From: Candidatus Helarchaeota ASGARD archaeon Hel_GB_B
GTDB taxonomy: Archaea > Asgardarchaeota > Lokiarchaeia > Helarchaeales > HEL-GB-B
Assembly: GCA_005191425.1 (NCBI GenBank)
Contig: SUPR01000033.1
Span: 1 to 32,000, forward strand
Direction of reading: 5' to 3'
Length of the DNA: 32,000 nt
The position numbers and the translations under genes were made by a program. Positions within the stretch are counted from its first letter, which is position 1; every line of letters starts with the position of its first letter. Of this stretch, positions 10,618 to 18,496 are shown one piece after another. The notes beneath the pieces are model-generated. The model made no database searches. It saw nothing but the letters and a program-made list of their open reading frames with translations, and had not been told where the DNA came from.

Positions 10618-13600
10618 TTATTCATTTTTAGCTGGGGGTTTAGGGGGCATTACTAATAAATCAATATTACCAGTCCCTAGTGGTATAATCTGGCCAATAA
10701 TTACATTTTCTGTGATACCATTTAATGGGTCAATATCGCCTCTTAAACTTGCGTCTAATAAATGTTTAATAGTAATTTCAAATGAAGCTCTAGCAAGTGC
10801 TGATGCTTTTTTACCACTTATCCCATGACGCCCAATTTGTCTTAGATTTCCAGTGTTTGTCATTATATCAGCAACGAGCATTATATGTCGTATATCAACA
10901 TCGAGTCCTTGTTCATCTAATACACCTAAAGCCTCGTTAATAATAGCATTTCTACATGCTTCTATACCGAGGACTTCATATATTTCTCGTAAATGGTTTG
11001 TAGTAGTCCTAGTATGGTCAACTCCCTTTACTAATAAGACTTCTTTGAGATTAGTACCTTCAGAATGAATAACATATTCATCAATATCTTTTTCTTTACG
11101 AATTATTACTCTTTTTATGCCTTCAATACCTTTTATTGGGAAATCTTGGATATTTTCTTTTTCTTTTTGAAGTTTGTCTAAATCGCCAGCTTTAGGTTTA
11201 TAAATAATTTGATTTCTTGTCTTAAGAATTTTAACCTCGCCTTTTTTCTTCCAGTCCTTGGTTTTAGCCTCGATTATATCATATGTAATTCCTTTGTCCT
11301 CCATCAATGCGGGGTCGAGCTCGATAATAATTTCCATATTTGCGATATCAATGGCGATATGATCAGCAATATTTTCAATCCTTGTCAATTCAATTTTTTG
11401 TGATATTTCTTTTGCTATATCTTTATTTTTTGCAATATTTTTCTCGAGAAATATTTTCATCATTGGAGTGCTGGGTATTCGTCTTGCATCAACAATTTCT
11501 ATTAACCTGGGTAGACCTAAAGTAACATTAAACTCTGCTGCTCCTGCATAATGGAATGTTTTAAGAGTATTATGGGTAATTAATCCTTCAGATATCGTGA
11601 AAGTTTCAAGTCCACCTACTGTAAAATCGTAGACATATTCGGTTGGTGAATCTATTAATTCAATATTTGTAATTTCGTCCCAAATAATGTCACTTTTAAT
11701 AGACTTCTGTAAAACAGAAAGTTCTTCATTTATATCAATGTTTTTCTCCCTTGAAAATACCAAAAGTTTTTCAACTAAATCATTTAATATGGATCTTTTA
11801 ATTATTTGCTTCTCTATAATTCTATTGATATTTTTTCCTAATTCTGAATCATTTGAAATTAGGAGTTTTTCCTTAATAGTTTGAAATATTGGTCCAAACC
11901 CTGTTATAACGTCAAAATCACCATAATTGGACTCAAATTTTTTAATTTTATTGATCAATTTTGAAAATTTCTTTAATTCTTTAGGATTAGATATTTTGGT
12001 ACCAATTTCATTAAGAAAAGATATTATATGCTCTTGGTGAATTAATAGGGTATATTGACCTTTTCTATTCATTTTAAATGAGGGAATACCGATTCTTGAT
12101 AATAATAAACAAAGTTTATCCCTTAATTCTTTAGAGTTAGAACTCAACTCTATTTGACATTTCTTAATATTTATTTTACCTTTAAAATCAAAATAGCTCT
12201 TCAACAAACCCTTGATAAATGTATCGTCAGAATTAATGACCCAATCGGGGATTATTTTATTATTATTCAATTCCCAGTTAATCTCGAAGATTTCAGCCAA
12301 TTTACTTGAAGTAATTATGATTTTCTTTTCTTTTTTATAATAATCTTCTAATTTATAGTTAAGTCCATGTTCTGATATAAACTTAGTAATCATATCGGAA
12401 TTGATTTTATTGTTAATTACAATAGAAATTTTATCGCCAGAATTTTTCCCGTTAGCAAGATAAGCTCCAGTAAAATAGCCAGTCATAAAGTCTAATTCCC
12501 ATTTATTTACATAGGAATTATAGCTATTGGAATCGGAAGTATTATTTAATTGAATATTATTTTTAGTAAATACTTGAGAGCTCCCAAAGTTTGTTGATAC
12601 CGATAGTAATTCTACTTGAAAATTATCTTCATTTATTATCGTTTGATTATTATCCATTATTTTTTCTGAGTTATCAATTCCTATTGATATTTGATTTGAT
12701 ACATTTTTGTTAAAATCAATTACTTTTAGAGGGTTTTGCGCGGGTAATTTTTTGACTAAAGGAATTCTATCACCAATTTTCAAATCTTTACCCTTAATAG
12801 GGATGATATTATTATTTTCTCTAATGACAAATGAATGAGATAAAGTAGAAGAAATAGTCCTACCGCTTTTTGTAGATATTTTGACAAGTTTTCCATTAGG
12901 TAGGTGTCGGCTTACTTGTAACAATAGTTGCCAATGAACATGTTCATCTTTTCCTAATGAAGGTACAAAGATTGTCATATTTTTTGGGATATCACAAATA
13001 GTTGACCCGAAGCTTGTAAAAACATTATCAGAATTGGATAGTCTTGTTATTAATTTATCGACAAATTCTCCAATAGGAGTTATAAGTGCCCTATTTTCTT
13101 GAAGAATAATTACTTTTTCATTTCCAGGAATACTCATTTGAGTGCCGGGTTCACCAATTGATTGTGCTGCCACAGTACCGACTGCTTCTCCCGGGTCTAC
13201 CAATGCTTGTTTATAATAGTTTATGGAAATATCAATTATGTTGTTAAGTATTTTTTCAGTAACTTGAATTTTTTCTAATGCACTAATTAATTTATTTATT
13301 ATAGAGTAAGGAAGCTTATTGGAATCATATTGAAATTTTAACCTAGATGCAATTTCTTCATTTGATAAGACAGGAGTTTCGTCATCTTCAATCTCACTTA
13401 ATACTTTTTCAATGACAATACCAATATTAAAAGCGATGCCATGGTCGCTTTTTGCGGGATCAATTCCATCTTCGCCATATTGAAATTGGATTATGTCTCC
13501 GGCAGCATTTCTTACGGTTCCATCGTATTCTACTTTAATATCTTGAAGCGCATTAATCAATCTTCGTTGCATATAACCGCTTGTACTTGTTCTGACTGCA

Positions 13601-16600
13601 GTATCCACAAGTCCTTCACGACCGCCCATTGCATGGAAGAAAAATTCGATTGGTGTTAAACCGCTATAATAACAATTAACGACAAAACCATGAGCTTTTG
13701 CGCTTAAATCCTCTTTTCTAAAATGAGGTAATGTCCGTTTCTTATAACCCCTCATAATTCTAGCTCCTCTAACAGATTGTTGCCCGACACAAGCAGTCAT
13801 TTGTGCTAAATTTAAAGTATTACCTCTTGCACCAGTTTTTGTCATAATCACAGCATGTTTATCAATTCCCAAATATCGGCCAGCAATATCGCCTGCTTCG
13901 TCTCTTGCTTTTGATAATGTTTCCATTATACGCATTTCAAGAGTGTCCTCTAATGTCCTACCGGGCGCACGTTGTAATTCGCCTTGTCTATATGTTTCAA
14001 TAAAATTGTTTACTTTTTTATCTGCTTCATTTAAATTGTATCTAATTCTATTTTTCGCTTCTTCTTGTATTTCAACATCATCGATCCCCATAGTGAACCC
14101 AATATTTGTGATTATTTCTATAATCATCCTAGCACATGAATCTAAAAATTGTCTGGCCCTTGTATTTCCATAATCTTTGACTATTCTATGTAATAAACTA
14201 TTTGGCTGCCCAGCTCCAAATGCTTTATTATCAATTACACCTGTAAGGAGTCTACCACGTCTAATTAATACATACGCATCATATGGGCACTCAAATTCTT
14301 GGCATACTTTACAATTTTGACATATCTTGGCCCTTAAAGATAAATTAAGATATTTTGGTAGAAGGATTGAGATTATTTGTTTTCCAGTCCAATATTGAGT
14401 TGGATATTTTATTACAGGTTCAGGAATTTCATAATGTTTTTTCTTTTTATCAGTTTGATATCCTGCAGCCATTAATAATTGACAAACAGTTTCTCTATCT
14501 AAAAGGTTGCTTTTTCTTGTTAACAAAAATGCTCCAGAGATATAATCTTGGATACCACCAATAATTGGGCCACCATATCTGGGAGATTCAATCTGTTCTT
14601 GAACTTTCATTAAAACTAAAGCTTCTGACCTTGCTTCTTCACTTTGCGGGACATGTAAGTTCATTTCATCTCCATCAAAATCTGCATTATAAGGTGGACA
14701 ATTTTTAGTTAAAAATTCTGCTGCAATGAAATTGTGATTTTCATCTGTTGTTGTAATATCATAAGCATAAGGAAGTTCAATTTCCTCGATTTTAACTATT
14801 TCGTCCCAAACAAAGCCATTATTCAGACCTTCGGTAGCCTTAATTTTCCAAGTAAAAAAATCAGGGAAATTTTTAAGTATATCAATATTTTTTGATTTAT
14901 CTTCGAATAAATAAGAAACTATACTCCACGAATCTTGACCTATCATTTCAGCAATTTCGTTATAATTAAATCCTTTATTTACTAATTCAACTACTTTTAA
15001 TGCTATCTCGTTAATTTCATTCTTTGTTCTGATTTTTGTTGTTAAATATTCAGTGATATGTCTGGCTAAAATTTCTTTTTCATTTGCGAATTCATATCCA
15101 ATATTATTGAAAAAAGCTAAAAAGTTTTCATCATCTGGTGTCAAATAGCATGAATATATAATTTTTTTAGGGTCATCTTTTTTTGAATTGATAATGACAT
15201 TTGAAATTTTTATATTAAAGATGTTAAGTAATTCTCTTATTCCATCTATGAATGGTTCAGGTGATATACCATCTATTTTTGTTATTTCAAAATATAATCG
15301 ATCGAATTCTTTGTTAGAATCAGAATTTAATTCTGGTAAAGACATTTTAGACCCGAAATATGCCCTTAAAAATGCTCTTTTTGCCATTTTTGGAGCTTGC
15401 ATAATCCATTTAGGTGTTGAATATTCTTGAACTGTTTTATCACCAACAGGCACACCTAAGATATTAAATGCTAATGCTAAAGATTTGTTTCTAATTTCAA
15501 AATAATATGTCTCATTATCTGGATTAACTGTTTTATCGTTAGTAATAAAATCAGATTTAAAGTTAAGTTTATTTATTTGAATAGGAATATCCGTTAAGTT
15601 CAAAGATTTAATAAGATCATGCATTGATTTTATATCATTTTTATTATTAGCCCTAAAAATGATTCTGGCATCATTTTCTGATATGTCTAAAGAGCCATTA
15701 CCAAATAAATGACCGACTAAGCTAGCTAATTTAATTTGCTTATCAGAACCTGCTTTAATATCAATTAAACCGAGTTGTTTTAATTCATTAAATATATAAT
15801 CGAAGTCAAAATTATCAGATAAAGCATTAGATATTTGTTGTTTTGTTAGGATATCTGGACATCCACCAATTTCTGGATATTCAATTGGATAAATAGCTAA
15901 ATAATCGCCTATTTTCAAATCACCACAATTTACTATCCCATTTTTTGAATAAAATGGATGTTCTTGTGTTGCCTCAATAATTCTATTATTTTTAGTAATG
16001 ATTCTAAAAGATTTAAGTCCGAGTTCTTTTGGTTTAATAATGTGAGATTTAGAGATTCCTGAATAGTAAGTTTTTTTATTAGTAGTCCAATTACAAGATA
16101 AGGGACTAAAATTGTTATGATTCTTAACAATTTCTGAGATTTTTACTTTACCAAGATTAGTAAAAAGATAAGTATCACCAGATAGACAGACGCAGAGAGA
16201 TAGTCTAAATGTTTTAAAAGGCATTACGACTACTTCATGTGCCATAATAGATAAACGATGTAAAGAAGGTTGCCTATTAAAAAGTACAATATCTTTATCT
16301 TTAAGATGCCGTTCTACAATGAAACCAGGTTCTAATATATCTGCAACTGCTTCTCTATTTTTTACAAATCTTAGATCAATACGATTACCGTCAGATCTTA
16401 TTACATAATTTGCGCCAGGATGTTTTTCGGGGCCTCTTATAACTATTTCTTTCATTTCTTCAATATTCCACTCAGTAACCCTCTCAGGAATAGTCAAGAC
16501 TTTAGCAATTTCCTCAGGAACTCCGACCTCATTAATACTAAGGTTAGGGTCGGGTGAAATTACAGTCCTTGCTGAGAAATCAACTCGTTTTCCTGATAGA

Positions 16601-17553
16601 TTACTCCTAAACCTTCCTTCTTTACCTTTTAATCTTTGGGATAATGTCCTCAAGGCGCGACCAGAACGGTGGCGAGCTGGAGGAATCCCAGAAACTTCAT
16701 TATCAAAATAAGTGGTAACATGGTATTGAAGTAATTCCCATAAATCTTCTACGATTAATTGAGGAGCTCCAGCATCGATATTTTCTCTTAATCTTTGGTT
16801 TATCCTAATAATATCGACTAATTTATGTGTCATATCATCTTCTGATCGAACTCCAGAGTCAAGAGTTATAGAAGGTCTAACGCAGACTGGAGGTACTGCA
16901 AGTACTGATAAAATCATCCATTCTGGACGAGCAAATTTTGGATTAATCCCGAGTAGTTTACAATCTTCATCTGGAATTCGTTCAAATCGGTCTCGAATAT
17001 CGCTGGGATTTAACCTAATAGTCCCGCTCTCGGTTTTTTCGTAATATGTTGTTGGTTTTTCAATCTTGATCTTAAGTTGTTGTTCATTACAATATGGACA
17101 TTTTTGGGTCTTAATTGCTTCTTTTAAAGCAATTTTAACAATATTTTTGTCCAATTCGCCATATTTACTTTCATAATCATTCATTTTTTGTAAAAGTTCT
17201 TCATAGAGGTCATTATTAAGCATGATTCTGCTACATTGACGACATATTGCTCGTAAAATTTTCTGAATTTTACTGGCGAACCCCACATGGATAACGGGTC
17301 GAGCTAATTCAATATGGCCAAAATGGCCCGTACATTCAGTTGTTCTATTACCACAAGTCCTGCACCTATGGCCAGGTTCAACAGTACCAAGACGTCCGTC
17401 CATTAGACCAGAGTCAATAGGAAGACCATCTTCGTCATAAGTATCGGGTGTAATTATACGGATATGACTAATTTTTCGGATATCTTCGGGCGAAAATAAT
17501 CCGAATTGGATTGATTTGATTTTTTTTAATGAATGGATAGGCATAACATTCAA
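10618..17553 (-). CDS. rpoA: DNA-directed RNA polymerase subunit A, unsplit A'/A'' fusion interrupted by two inteins
   Basis: Zn motifs (RCRTCG, CPYC), FNRQPSLHRLS, CPPYNADFDGDEMN, bridge-helix region (GREGLVDTAVRTSTSGYMQRR) and A''-type GEPGTQM..TLKTFHYAG all lie in one frame. The likely start is ATG 17544, preceded by AGGTTGA. The extein sums to about 1290 aa. Confidence 0.95.
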   Translation of the reverse strand: MNVMPIHSLKKIKSIQFGLFSPEDIRKISHIRIITPDTYDEDGLPIDSGLMDGRLGTVEPGHRCRTCGNRTTECTGHFGHIELARPVIHVGFASKIQKILRAICRQCSRIMLNNDLYEELLQKMNDYESKYGELDKNIVKIALKEAIKTQKCPYCNEQQLKIKIEKPTTYYEKTESGTIRLNPSDIRDRFERIPDEDCKLLGINPKFARPEWMILSVLAVPPVCVRPSITLDSGVRSEDDMTHKLVDIIRINQRLRENIDAGAPQLIVEDLWELLQYHVTTYFDNEVSGIPPARHRSGRALRTLSQRLKGKEGRFRSNLSGKRVDFSARTVISPDPNLSINEVGVPEEIAKVLTIPERVTEWNIEEMKEIVIRGPEKHPGANYVIRSDGNRIDLRFVKNREAVADILEPGFIVERHLKDKDIVLFNRQPSLHRLSIMAHEVVVMPFKTFRLSLCVCLSGDTYLFTNLGKVKISEIVKNHNNFSPLSCNWTTNKKTYYSGISKSHIIKPKELGLKSFRIITKNNRIIEATQEHPFYSKNGIVNCGDLKIGDYLAIYPIEYPEIGGCPDILTKQQISNALSDNFDFDYIFNELKQLGLIDIKAGSDKQIKLASLVGHLFGNGSLDISENDARIIFRANNKNDIKSMHDLIKSLNLTDIPIQINKLNFKSDFITNDKTVNPDNETYYFEIRNKSLALAFNILGVPVGDKTVQEYSTPKWIMQAPKMAKRAFLRAYFGSKMSLPELNSDSNKEFDRLYFEITKIDGISPEPFIDGIRELLNIFNIKISNVIINSKKDDPKKIIYSCYLTPDDENFLAFFNNIGYEFANEKEILARHITEYLTTKIRTKNEINEIALKVVELVNKGFNYNEIAEMIGQDSWSIVSYLFEDKSKNIDILKNFPDFFTWKIKATEGLNNGFVWDEIVKIEEIELPYAYDITTTDENHNFIAAEFLTKNCPPYNADFDGDEMNLHVPQSEEARSEALVLMKVQEQIESPRYGGPIIGGIQDYISGAFLLTRKSNLLDRETVCQLLMAAGYQTDKKKKHYEIPEPVIKYPTQYWTGKQIISILLPKYLNLSLRAKICQNCKVCQEFECPYDAYVLIRRGRLLTGVIDNKAFGAGQPNSLLHRIVKDYGNTRARQFLDSCARMIIEIITNIGFTMGIDDVEIQEEAKNRIRYNLNEADKKVNNFIETYRQGELQRAPGRTLEDTLEMRIMETLSKARDEAGDIAGRYLGIDKHAVIMTKTGARGNTLNLAQMTACVGQQSVRGARIMRGYKKRTLPHFRKEDLSAKAHGFVVNCYYSGLTPIEFFFHAMGGREGLVDTAVRTSTSGYMQRRLINALQDIKVEYDGTVRNAAGDIIQFQYGEDGIDPAKSDHGIAFNIGIVIEKVLSEIEDDETPVLSNEEIASRLKFQYDSNKLPYSIINKLISALEKIQVTEKILNNIIDISINYYKQALVDPGEAVGTVAAQSIGEPGTQMSIPGNEKVIILQENRALITPIGEFVDKLITRLSNSDNVFTSFGSTICDIPKNMTIFVPSLGKDEHVHWQLLLQVSRHLPNGKLVKISTKSGRTISSTLSHSFVIRENNNIIPIKGKDLKIGDRIPLVKKLPAQNPLKVIDFNKNVSNQISIGIDNSEKIMDNNQTIINEDNFQVELLSVSTNFGSSQVFTKNNIQLNNTSDSNSYNSYVNKWELDFMTGYFTGAYLANGKNSGDKISIVINNKINSDMITKFISEHGLNYKLEDYYKKEKKIIITSSKLAEIFEINWELNNNKIIPDWVINSDDTFIKGLLKSYFDFKGKINIKKCQIELSSNSKELRDKLCLLLSRIGIPSFKMNRKGQYTLLIHQEHIISFLNEIGTKISNPKELKKFSKLINKIKKFESNYGDFDVITGFGPIFQTIKEKLLISNDSELGKNINRIIEKQIIKRSILNDLVEKLLVFSREKNIDINEELSVLQKSIKSDIIWDEITNIELIDSPTEYVYDFTVGGLETFTISEGLITHNTLKTFHYAGAAEFNVTLGLPRLIEIVDARRIPSTPMMKIFLEKNIAKNKDIAKEISQKIELTRIENIADHIAIDIANMEIIIELDPALMEDKGITYDIIEAKTKDWKKKGEVKILKTRNQIIYKPKAGDLDKLQKEKENIQDFPIKGIEGIKRVIIRKEKDIDEYVIHSEGTNLKEVLLVKGVDHTRTTTNHLREIYEVLGIEACRNAIINEALGVLDEQGLDVDIRHIMLVADIMTNTGNLRQIGRHGISGKKASALARASFEITIKHLLDASLRGDIDPLNGITENVIIGQIIPLGTGNIDLLVMPPKPPAKNE
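11569..13134 (-). mobile_element. Intein 2 (522 aa) with a LAGLIDADG-type endonuclease domain, in the A'' part of rpoA
   Basis: Junctions are ...SIGEPGTQM|SIPGNEKVII...TISEGLITHN|TLKTFHYAG. Removing it restores GEPGTQMTLKTFHYAG. Block B is STLSHSF and block F/G is YVYDFTVGGLETFTISEGLITHN. DOD-like motifs are YFTGAYLANGKN and FIKGLLKSYFDFKGKI. Confidence 0.9.
14701..16188 (-). mobile_element. Intein 1 (496 aa) with a LAGLIDADG-type endonuclease domain, in the A' part of rpoA
   Basis: Junctions are ...FRLSLCV|CLSGDTYLF...NHNFIAAEFLTKN|CPPYNADFDGD. Removing it restores the conserved RLxLxVCPPYNADFDGD. Block B is ATQEHPF and block F is YDITTTDENHNF. DOD-like motifs are LVGHLFGNGSL and FLRAYFGSKMS. 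Confidence 0.9.
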
Positions 17554-17820
17554 CCTATAGGGTCTTAAAATTTAAAATTTTAACATTTTTTTAATAATTA
17601 ATTAAAGGGATTATAATTTATCATCCATGGTTTATCTTTTAATGAAGGAAATTGATTTATTTCATAATAAAAAGTCGTTATCTGCATTTGTGATTTTCTA
17701 AAAATTAAAAACATAATGCTTTTTAAACATTTTGGTTAAAAGACATTTTCGTTATTTTTTAAAAAAGAAAGATCGGTTCAATAAAGATAAAATTTGAAAA
17801 AGTTAATGCTCCGACCGGGA

Positions 17821-17847
17821 TTTTCGCTCCTATCAACTGAACTGAGT
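17821..17847 (-). other. 27-nt tRNA intron at T-loop position 59/60 with a canonical bulge-helix-bulge motif
   Basis: CCGGG-TTCG-[ATA]-CTC...GAG-CGAA-[AAT]-CCCGG. A 4-bp central helix TTCG/CGAA is flanked by two 3-nt bulges and by the outer helices CCGGG/CCCGG and CTC/GAG. Cleavage after the second bulge nucleotide yields the 7-nt T-loop TTCGATT. Confidence 0.65.
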
Positions 17848-17885
17848 ATCGAACCCGGGGCTATGGGGCGAGAGCCCATAATGTA

Positions 17886-17934
17886 TAGGCACCATGATTT
17901 AATCTTAAGTTATATTTTAGTTGTAAATAAAGAT
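17886..17934 (-). other. Roughly 49-nt insertion (putative intron) in the tRNA D-loop, boundaries uncertain by a few nt
   Basis: 59 nt lie between the D-stem strands GTGT and ACAT. GGCA (17940-17937) pairs with TGCC (17891-17888). An internal AATCTT/AAGATT helix is present. The proposed mature D-loop is AGAGGCAAAT. Confidence 0.45.
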
Positions 17935-17971
17935 TTTGCCTCTACACCATCGGAGCTTATATTAAAAAAAA

Positions 17972-18496
17972 TTATTTTTTACTTTTTGTTGATAACCGTT
18001 TTCCACAACTTGGGCAAGTGCCGTGAATCTTAAGATATTCAAGGAAGTGGTCTTTATGGGCAACTACACCACAAGCAGGACATTTTATCTTGACATCACC
18101 TGGTTTTATTATTCCTTTACAGACTGGACAAACTAATGGAACTTGTGATATTAAAAGTAATCTTTTTTCTGAATTAAACTTGGCACTTTCTAAATTATCT
18201 ATCCCGATGATAAATGGCTTTTGATTTTCTCTAGAATCCAAAAAAATTTCGATCCCCTTTTTTCCATCTCTACGGTCGCCTATCCATTTTACTGTACCTG
18301 AAATTTTTGAAACAGGAGAACCACTTTTAGAGATAGAGATTTCTGCTTTTAAAGGAGAATCAAAAATAAATGTCCTAAGTACTTTTGTTATTTCAAACGC
18401 TTCTTTAGTTCGTTCTGAATTTATAGCATTATTAATAGCCATTACTAATTTTTCTGGACCATTATCAATTAAGTTCTTAACATCAATTTCTACCAA
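17972..18496 (-). CDS. Hypothetical protein with a C-terminal RING-like cross-brace zinc module
   Basis: The C-terminus reads CPVC-x12-CPAC-x4-H-x2-H-x10-CPSC (residues 123-164). No motif recognised in the N-terminal 120 aa. Confidence 0.6.
   Translation of the reverse strand: MVEIDVKNLIDNGPEKLVMAINNAINSERTKEAFEITKVLRTFIFDSPLKAEISISKSGSPVSKISGTVKWIGDRRDGKKGIEIFLDSRENQKPFIIGIDNLESAKFNSEKRLLLISQVPLVCPVCKGIIKPGDVKIKCPACGVVAHKDHFLEYLKIHGTCPSCGKRLSTKSKK

Follow-up and report, generated by a model that had tools for sequence, protein, structure and literature searches.

Can a gene whose D arm and T loop are both interrupted by long inserts, and which standard tRNA finders pass over, encode a working tRNA? 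This question is raised by a locus on the minus strand of a 32,000-nt stretch of contig SUPR01000033.1 from Candidatus Helarchaeota archaeon Hel_GB_B (the whole stretch is referred to as the window; ∼28% GC). A sequence-only reading had proposed that the locus is a tRNA-Glu(CUC) gene with two non-canonical introns and none at the canonical position 37/38. We consider it highly probable, from the sequence of the gene and of its orthologues, that 17956..17807 (−) is a functional tRNA-Glu(CUC) gene with a 150-nt precursor, two bulge–helix–bulge (BHB) introns and none at 37/38.

Anatomy and identity of the gene

The gene occupies 17807..17956 on the minus strand, a precursor body of 150 nt in which the terminal CCA is not encoded. 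Its layout on this strand is GCTCCGA-TG-GTGT-(59 nt)-ACAT-T-ATGGG-CTCTCGC-CCCAT-AGCC-CCGGG-(34 nt)-CCCGG-TCGGAGC-A. The acceptor stem comprises seven perfect base pairs (GCTCCGA/TCGGAGC) and the D stem four (GTGT/ACAT). The anticodon CTC (17872..17870 (−)) lies inside the arm ATGGG-CTCTCGC-CCCAT, and the 7-nt anticodon loop carries U33 and is uninterrupted, so that an intron at 37/38 is absent. The T stem consists of five G+C-rich pairs (CCGGG/CCCGG), and the variable region has four nucleotides (AGCC), which is usual in tRNA-Glu. All the elements named in the sequence-only reading, the acceptor stem, the anticodon arm and the T stem, are thus found on the minus strand.

Exon 1 (17936..17956 (−)) contains the 5′ strand of the acceptor stem (GCTCCGA), U8 and G9, the 5′ strand of the D stem (GTGT) and the D loop AGAGGCAA. 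Exon 2 (17848..17884 (−)) contains the 3′ strand of the D stem (ACAT), T26, the anticodon arm, the variable region AGCC, the 5′ strand of the T stem (CCGGG) and the T-loop bases TTCGAT. Exon 3 (17807..17820 (−)), which is invariant across the orthologues described below, supplies T60, the 3′ strands of the T stem (CCCGG) and acceptor stem (TCGGAGC) and the discriminator A. The exons are G+C-rich and the inserts A+T-rich.

Every stem is fully paired once both inserts are taken out. The spliced sequence, GCTCCGA-TG-GTGT-AGAGGCAA-ACAT-T-ATGGG-CTCTCGC-CCCAT-AGCC-CCGGG-TTCGATT-CCCGG-TCGGAGC-A, retains the bases needed for tertiary interactions (U8, A14, G18G19, A21, G15-C48, T54-T55-C56 and A58). 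It is written here with a D-arm intron of 51 nt, the only register in which A21 is retained, and the predicted tRNA of 72 nt would read ...GGCAAACATTATGGG... and ...TTCGATTCCCGG.... The 74-nt product expected earlier would require a D-arm intron of 49 nt, a register that we weigh below; the preferred register gives 72 nt.

A run of five T residues (17797..17801 (−)) lies 6 nt downstream of the discriminator and is likely to act as the transcription stop; T-rich stretches also lie downstream of most orthologues. The CCA that follows the discriminator is encoded in three of these orthologues (L144, L145 and L148) and is not encoded in the window (TTA, 17804..17806), in L147 (TTC) or in L149 (CTA).

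Detection by tRNA finders

ARAGORN, run on the window and on the isolated precursor with the options -i, -i200, -ps and -ps90, calls no tRNA. After in-silico removal of both inserts, it reports a tRNA-Glu(ctc) of 72 nt with a score of 124.3. This call and the conserved exons of the orthologues back the proposed identity, Glu (CUC), and the lack of a 37/38 intron. Rfam finds no tRNA over the whole window, either at the gathering threshold or at E ≤ 5. When 17700..18100 is searched alone, a partial tRNA match to the middle of the gene appears at 17 bits, versus a gathering score of 29 (RF00005); a sub-gathering score is expected for the unspliced gene because of its two long inserts. The expectation that standard scanners miss such genes is therefore borne out by both programs. 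ARAGORN had also been suggested as a means of finding the gene, and in this respect the suggestion failed, since the program is silent even with -i.

A composite pattern consisting of the tRNA-Glu 5′ end and, further downstream, the 3′ strands of the T stem and acceptor stem occurs once in the window and in 0 of 100 shuffles. A custom scan of the 32-kb window for an acceptor stem plus T arm gave no further convincing candidate, and genome contigs scanned for the exact pattern of anticodon arm and T stem contained 0 matches. Relaxing the pattern and scanning metagenome contigs returned 10 matches, which we rejected: all are chance matches in GC-rich bacterial contigs.

Conservation in syntenic orthologues

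The identical 150-nt gene is present in eight independent assemblies of the same Helarchaeota population. Homologs of the RING-finger protein encoded next to the gene, with 68–73% identity, led to five other syntenic loci (L144, L145/L146, L147, L148 and L149/L150), which comprise four distinct sequences. In each of them a tRNA lies 0–22 nt after the stop codon of the RING gene, and where the contig extends far enough, rpoA follows a few hundred bases downstream. The acceptor and D stems, anticodon loop, variable region and T stem seen in the window gene recur in every orthologue, and a plain tRNA search misses each of these genes. After in-silico splicing, each becomes a 72-nt tRNA-Glu(ctc) with an ARAGORN score of 122–125, and 68–72 of the 72 exon positions are identical to those of the window gene (94–100%).

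The anticodon stem occurs in four variants, ATGGG/CCCAT, ACAGG/CCTGT, GGAGG/CCTCC and ATAGG/CCTGT, all of which keep the pairing. The stem is paired in 100% of cells, compared with 32–51% in slid controls, and three of its pairs show double (compensatory) changes, whereas the slid controls show none. With four distinct sequences, this test is statistically modest but consistent. The D-arm inserts range from 19 to 55 nt across the orthologues. Conserved exons, compensatory stems and freely varying inserts are what a functional gene whose introns are spliced would show, and not what a pseudogene would.

Three loci reached through RpoA (L003, L134 and L135) were set aside, as they have no tRNA upstream or their contigs end too early, and the tRNA does not follow the more distant RING homolog P0133 (55% identity; L151/L152).

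The T-loop intron

The T-loop intron (17821..17847 (−)) has a length of 27 nt, is located at position 59/60 and shows a strict hBHBh′ motif, CCGGG-TTCG-[ATA]-CTC ... GAG-CGAA-[AAT]-CCCGG. The T stem itself forms the outer helix, and the central 4-bp helix is formed by positions 54–57 (TTCG) and the 3′ end of the intron (CGAA). This is the only motif that scores 10/10 in a BHB scan of the gene, and the minimum free energy (MFE) fold likewise shows it. Cuts after the second base of each bulge, a rule that we checked by reading the sequence of the canonical 37/38 intron of another tRNA-Glu gene (L017), would remove 27 of the 34 nt and leave a 7-nt T loop, TTCGATT, with A58 in place.

The BHB register (TTCG/CGAA with 3-nt bulges ATA or ACA and AAT or ACT) is kept in six of six orthologous genes. 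The introns differ in sequence and in length (26–35 nt), and the inner helix covaries (CTC/GAG, TCTT/AAGG, CG/CG), being displaced in L148 only. The 34-nt T loop, its motif and the predicted 27-nt intron of the sequence-only reading are hence supported by fold, scan and orthologues.

The D-arm intron

The D-arm intron is most likely 51 nt long and located at position 21/22, the junction between D loop and D stem (17885..17935 (−)); the adenines that flank it permit a shift of 1 nt with an identical product. This assignment draws on a comparison of the window gene with L144 and L145 and on the rules of tRNA structure. The 5′ flank GTGTAGAGGCAAA is invariant in all three genes, which begin to diverge directly after it, and the 3′ flank GCCTA(T/A)ACAT is also common to them; between the flanks lie 49–55 unrelated bases. 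Since no GG is present downstream in L144 and L145, G18 and G19 must be supplied by exon 1.

The two flanks contain the strands of a putative helix H: AGGC (17938..17941 (−)), followed by AAA with a predicted cut AA↓A, and GCCT (17887..17890 (−)), followed by ATA with a predicted cut AT↓A. Both strands are invariant in the window, L144 and L145. The AGGC/GCCT helix is thus kept in all three genes, and L145 lacks the additional A:T pair of GGCA/TGCC; the MFE fold of the insert contains an AGGCA/UGCCU helix. Cuts at AA↓A and A(T/A)↓A, 2 nt 3′ of each H strand, would leave all three genes with an identical mature D arm, GTGT-AGAGGCAA-ACAT. This D arm differs from that of L147–149 at position 16 only. 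A BHB scan of the insert yields no strict hBHBh′ motif that leaves a normal D arm. The arrangement is of the relaxed HBh′-like kind, with a conserved 4-bp helix, cuts 2 nt 3′ of its strands and a normal tRNA as the predicted product.

The sequence-only reading had placed a relaxed BHB on GGCA/TGCC, with an intron of about 49 nt in a 59-nt D loop. The pairing is real and the relaxed nature of the motif stands; the conserved helix is AGGC/GCCT, and the preferred length is 51 nt. In the 49-nt register (17934..17886), the cuts would be GGCAAA↓...TGCCTA↓T with H formed by GGCA/TGCC, giving a tRNA of 74 nt whose D loop, AGAGGCAAAT, has 10 nt and which would read ...GGCAAATACAT... as opposed to ...GGCAAACAT... 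in the 51-nt register. GGCA/TGCC does pair in the window and in L144, where the fit is slightly better (a 5-bp AGGCA/UGCCU helix plus an 8-bp inner helix), H begins at G18 in the 21/22 introns of Freya- and Jordarchaeia, and the ARAGORN score of the product is equal (124.3). However, the fourth pair becomes A-A in L145 (GGCA/AGCC), whereas AGGC/GCCT is invariant, and the register assigns the sole variable base of the flanks (T/A/T) to mature D-loop position 21, where A is the norm. The D loop would moreover exceed by 2 nt that of L147–149, where GGCAAACAT is contiguous. We therefore regard the 49-nt register as unlikely. The 51-nt register is favored because the sole variable flanking base falls inside the intron, because A21 is kept, because L147–149 hold GGCAAACAT as one unbroken stretch and because the D loop AGAGG... 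is similar to the one in bacterial tRNA-Glu. The tRNA-Glu of Escherichia coli has a D loop of this type.

A reading of the window gene as an intron after position 15, GTGT[AG↓A]GGCA...TGCC(T)ATAC[AT↓T], was rejected, as the D arm would lose its 3′ half; the lack of a downstream GG for G18G19 in L144 and L145 speaks against it as well. An inspection of the introns by eye for C/D-box-like signals revealed nothing conserved.

Alternative explanations

Several observations weigh against a gene with two spliced introns. BHB-like motifs (3 + 4 + 3 bp, G-U allowed, intron of 12–60 nt) number ∼200 per strand in the 28% GC window; such motifs are common by chance in AT-rich DNA, and a motif alone is weak evidence. 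A count of perfect BHB motifs, also frequent by chance, was accordingly dropped as a test of significance, and a “textbook BHB” picked by eye in such A+T-rich DNA needs positional or comparative support. What gives the T-loop motif weight is where exactly in the T loop it sits and that the orthologues conserve it, not the motif by itself. For the D-arm insert, the 3′ cut site faces TAG in a 3 × 3 internal loop, the MFE fold is almost fully helical there, and the inner helix h′ has 3 bp in the window, 0 in L144 and 1 bp in L145. With the 3′ site in such a loop and an inner helix this weak, the motif is relaxed and not a strict BHB in either register, so that the predicted cut sites follow from the comparison of orthologues and tRNA rules rather than from a clean motif.

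The lack of a strict BHB in the D insert, and the fact that no tRNA finder calls the gene, could also be taken as signs of a decaying tRNA pseudogene with insertions in its loops that is not spliced to a working tRNA. Such a relic is very unlikely: the exons are under clear purifying selection in lineages whose adjacent protein is just 68–73% identical, the substitutions in the anticodon stem are all compensatory, and the inserts vary freely with the helices of the splice motifs kept; moreover, each contig seen has a single copy of the tRNA locus, in synteny. If only the T-loop intron were removed, the D-arm insert would persist in a mature RNA of ∼123 nt as an expanded D arm, for which its long, nearly continuous helix with the D stem and the absence of canonical bulges might speak. 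Nevertheless, neither the length (49, 51, 55 nt) nor the sequence of the insert is conserved, the sister lineage lacks it and has a clean BHB intron at 15/16 instead, and in the established tRNA architecture G18 and G19 have to reach the T loop, whereas a 59-nt D loop would leave them buried; retention of the insert is therefore extremely improbable. The chance that the region encodes a protein and not an RNA is close to negligible. The open reading frame (ORF) of 79 amino acids at 17794..18033 (+), called spurious in the sequence-only reading, does exist, but it begins with TTG, overlaps the oppositely oriented RING gene at that gene's 3′ end, runs exactly antisense to the conserved tRNA and is interrupted in the orthologue L144. 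Stems that covary and inserts that change freely are the conservation pattern of an RNA.

Proposed maturation

The two-intron gene would most likely mature by ordinary archaeal tRNA processing; we infer transcription and the enzymes involved from the sequence. The gene would be transcribed, possibly jointly with the RING-finger gene, whose end lies 15 nt upstream, and RNase P and tRNase Z would trim the ends. The splicing endonuclease EndA would cut the T-loop intron at TTCGAT↓A...AA↓T in the strict hBHBh′ motif, and the D-arm intron at GGCAA↓A...AT↓ACAT in a relaxed motif such as an (αβ)2 EndA of broad specificity can process. An RtcB-type ligase would then join the three exons to the 72-nt tRNA, to which CCA would be added. 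The window itself contains no gene for either the endonuclease or the ligase.

Possible turnover of the D-arm intron between sister lineages

The T-loop intron is common to all orthologues, and the D-arm intron is located at 21/22 in the window lineage and at 15/16 in three orthologues. L147–149 have no insert after A21 and carry instead an intron of ∼20 nt after G15. The motif of this intron is clean, GTGT-[AG↓N]-CAGG ... CCTG-GCAN-[NN↓Y]-GGCAAACAT, and uses the 5′ strand of the D stem in its central helix. We also considered two micro-introns in L147–149, with GTGT/ATAC as D stem, and rejected them: ATAC, GATT and TAAC are neither conserved nor complementary, whereas ACAT is.

Dozens of Nitrososphaeraceae genomes have the 15/16 architecture too, as does the tRNA-Glu(UUC) gene of Helarchaeota LW55_61 (L068). 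In Nitrososphaeraceae, the 15/16 D-loop intron of tRNA-Glu is very widespread, and in this group of genes (e.g., L004, L013, L026 and L068) GTGT pairs with GCAC or GCAN. Among the non-canonical sites listed in a 2014 review, position 15/16 does not appear (PMC4090602). The 15/16 genes of Nitrososphaeraceae, L068 and L147–149 belong to the same tRNA family as the window gene, share its 5′ sequence GCTCCGRTGGTGTAG and likewise have an interrupted D arm; L147–149 are in addition its syntenic orthologues, with the T-loop intron in common. In the 15/16 genes, however, the intron follows G15, H is formed by GTGT and the intron bases GCAN, and G18 and G19 lie in the downstream exon, whereas exon 1 of the window gene includes G18 and G19, and the D-arm intron comes after A21.

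The chances seem even that these two sister Helarchaeales lineages record a recent loss and gain, or a relocation, of the D-arm intron within one gene. If so, the gene would offer a case of intron turnover that can be dated, in the archaea most closely related to eukaryotes, and a natural substrate for asking how far Asgard EndA tolerates departures from the BHB. Intron positions that change while exons stay fixed bear on how endonuclease-type introns move.

Genomic neighbourhood

The neighbouring genes are archaeal and encode a thermosome, archaeosine tRNA-guanine transglycosylase (TGT), PheRS α and β, an ATP-dependent DNA ligase and an intein-bearing RpoA. At its N-terminus, RpoA shares 80% identity with a protein from a Promethearchaeota metagenome-assembled genome (MAG) and 77% with one from Helarchaeales.

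The gene of the RING/zinc-ribbon protein (174 amino acids; 17972..18496 (−)) has its stop codon 15 nt before the 5′ end of the tRNA. The protein is 100% identical to one in MAGs of “Candidatus Helarchaeota archaeon”, and its C-terminal RING/double-zinc-ribbon region gives weak sub-gathering Pfam matches to Prok-RING_1, Zn_ribbon_6 and zf-RING_2. Homologs are found in Helarchaeota and Lokiarchaeota MAGs, and one homolog is annotated as an E3 ubiquitin-protein ligase by one source. The tRNA start directly abuts the TAA of the RING gene in L147 and L149. Because the stop codon abuts the tRNA in these two orthologues, co-transcription with the RING gene is possible. Either the two genes are co-transcribed or the tRNA promoter would lie within the RING coding sequence. 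The upstream region (17957..17974 of the window, together with L144–L149) shows no obvious conserved TATA-like element.

The rpoA gene (10618..17553 (−)) is a single ORF of 2311 amino acids with Rpb1 domains 1–5 in which A′ and A″ are unsplit. It contains two intein-like inserts, one with a LAGLIDADG domain. The RpoA orthologues have 1822 (L144) and 1290 (L145) amino acids, so the intein content varies between relatives.

Comparison with known intron-bearing tRNA genes

We scanned one genome per species for tRNA-Glu genes with 25–85 extra bases and obtained at least 120 loci. At least 84 have an insert in the D region, at least 28 in the T loop and at least 8 in both; among the matches listed, the loci with both inserts come from Freya-, Jord- and Sifarchaeia genomes and one unclassified archaeon. 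Seven genes that we read closely (L018, L023, L097, L115, L119, L025 and L104) have a D-arm intron at 21/22 with G18G19NN paired to the 3′ end of the intron, and four of them (L018, L023, L097 and L115) also have a T-loop intron at 59/60 with TTCG/CGAA.

Some tRNA-Glu genes have other architectures. One is a further tRNA-Glu(CTC) missed by ARAGORN, L001 (7986..8103 (+)) in the Promethearchaeota MAG GCA_048938205.1, with the acceptor stem GCCGCGT/ACGCGGC. It has a canonical 37/38 intron of 13 nt and a 59/60 T-loop intron, lacks a D-arm intron and scores 120 in ARAGORN after splicing. In Promethearchaeota H2M.176 and H2M.186 (L046 and L088), the tRNA-Glu introns, judged by eye, apparently lie within the anticodon (∼34/35) and where the T stem meets the T loop (∼53/54).

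Genes with such introns are known outside the Asgard archaea. The nucleomorph and Cyanidioschyzon merolae tRNA genes resemble the window gene in their D- and T-arm introns, sometimes two or three per gene, but they are eukaryotic, many of their introns are very short (3–24 nt) and their evolutionary context is different (PMC4090602). In Thermoproteales, a tRNA gene may contain as many as three BHB introns, and 22/23 and 59/60 are among the non-canonical sites that they occupy (Sugahara et al. 2007, 2008; PMC4090602); the review by Yoshihisa counts 22/23 and 59/60 among the known non-canonical positions and, for this order, reports relaxed motifs (HBh′ and hBH) as well as the transposition of introns (PMC4090602). 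The likeness extends to the mixture of strict hBHBh′ and relaxed HBh′/hBH motifs, to removal by a broad-specificity (αβ)2 EndA (PMC4090602), and to intron positions that shift between close relatives by transposition (Fujishima et al. 2010, cited in PMC4090602). Unlike the 28% GC genome considered here, the Thermoproteales are GC-rich hyperthermophiles, and they belong to another phylum.

Among Asgard archaea, Kaneta et al. (2018) found that an (αβ)2 EndA is encoded, with an L1 loop tied to broad specificity, and that incomplete tRNA sets point to undetected disrupted genes (PMC5829648). In Atabey- and Freyarchaeia, 92–95% of the tRNA genes are intron-bearing, frequently at non-canonical sites, and more than half carry several introns (PMC11291895). 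L115 lies in CP147778.1, the complete genome that Valentin-Alvarado et al. 2024 published for Freyarchaeia (PMC11291895). The multi-intron tRNA-Glu genes L115, L018, L023 and L097 belong to the same superphylum as the window gene and share its 21/22 and 59/60 sites. They differ in having a third intron in the anticodon loop, whereas the window gene has none at 37/38, and their D-arm introns are 15–22 nt long, compared with 51 nt. The window gene comes from another lineage (Helarchaeota/Helarchaeales) than the Freyarchaeia-type genes, and its D loop is short and bacterial-like (AGAGGCAA).

Multi-intron, non-canonical tRNA genes are therefore already documented in Thermoproteales and Asgard archaea; the window gene is not unusual for the latter and involves no new mechanism and no new class of element. 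Annotations made with standard finders would under-count the tRNAs of this Helarchaeota population, and a list of open frames has a spurious ORF in place of the gene. With it, Helarchaeota are added to the Asgard lineages whose tRNA genes bear several non-canonical introns.

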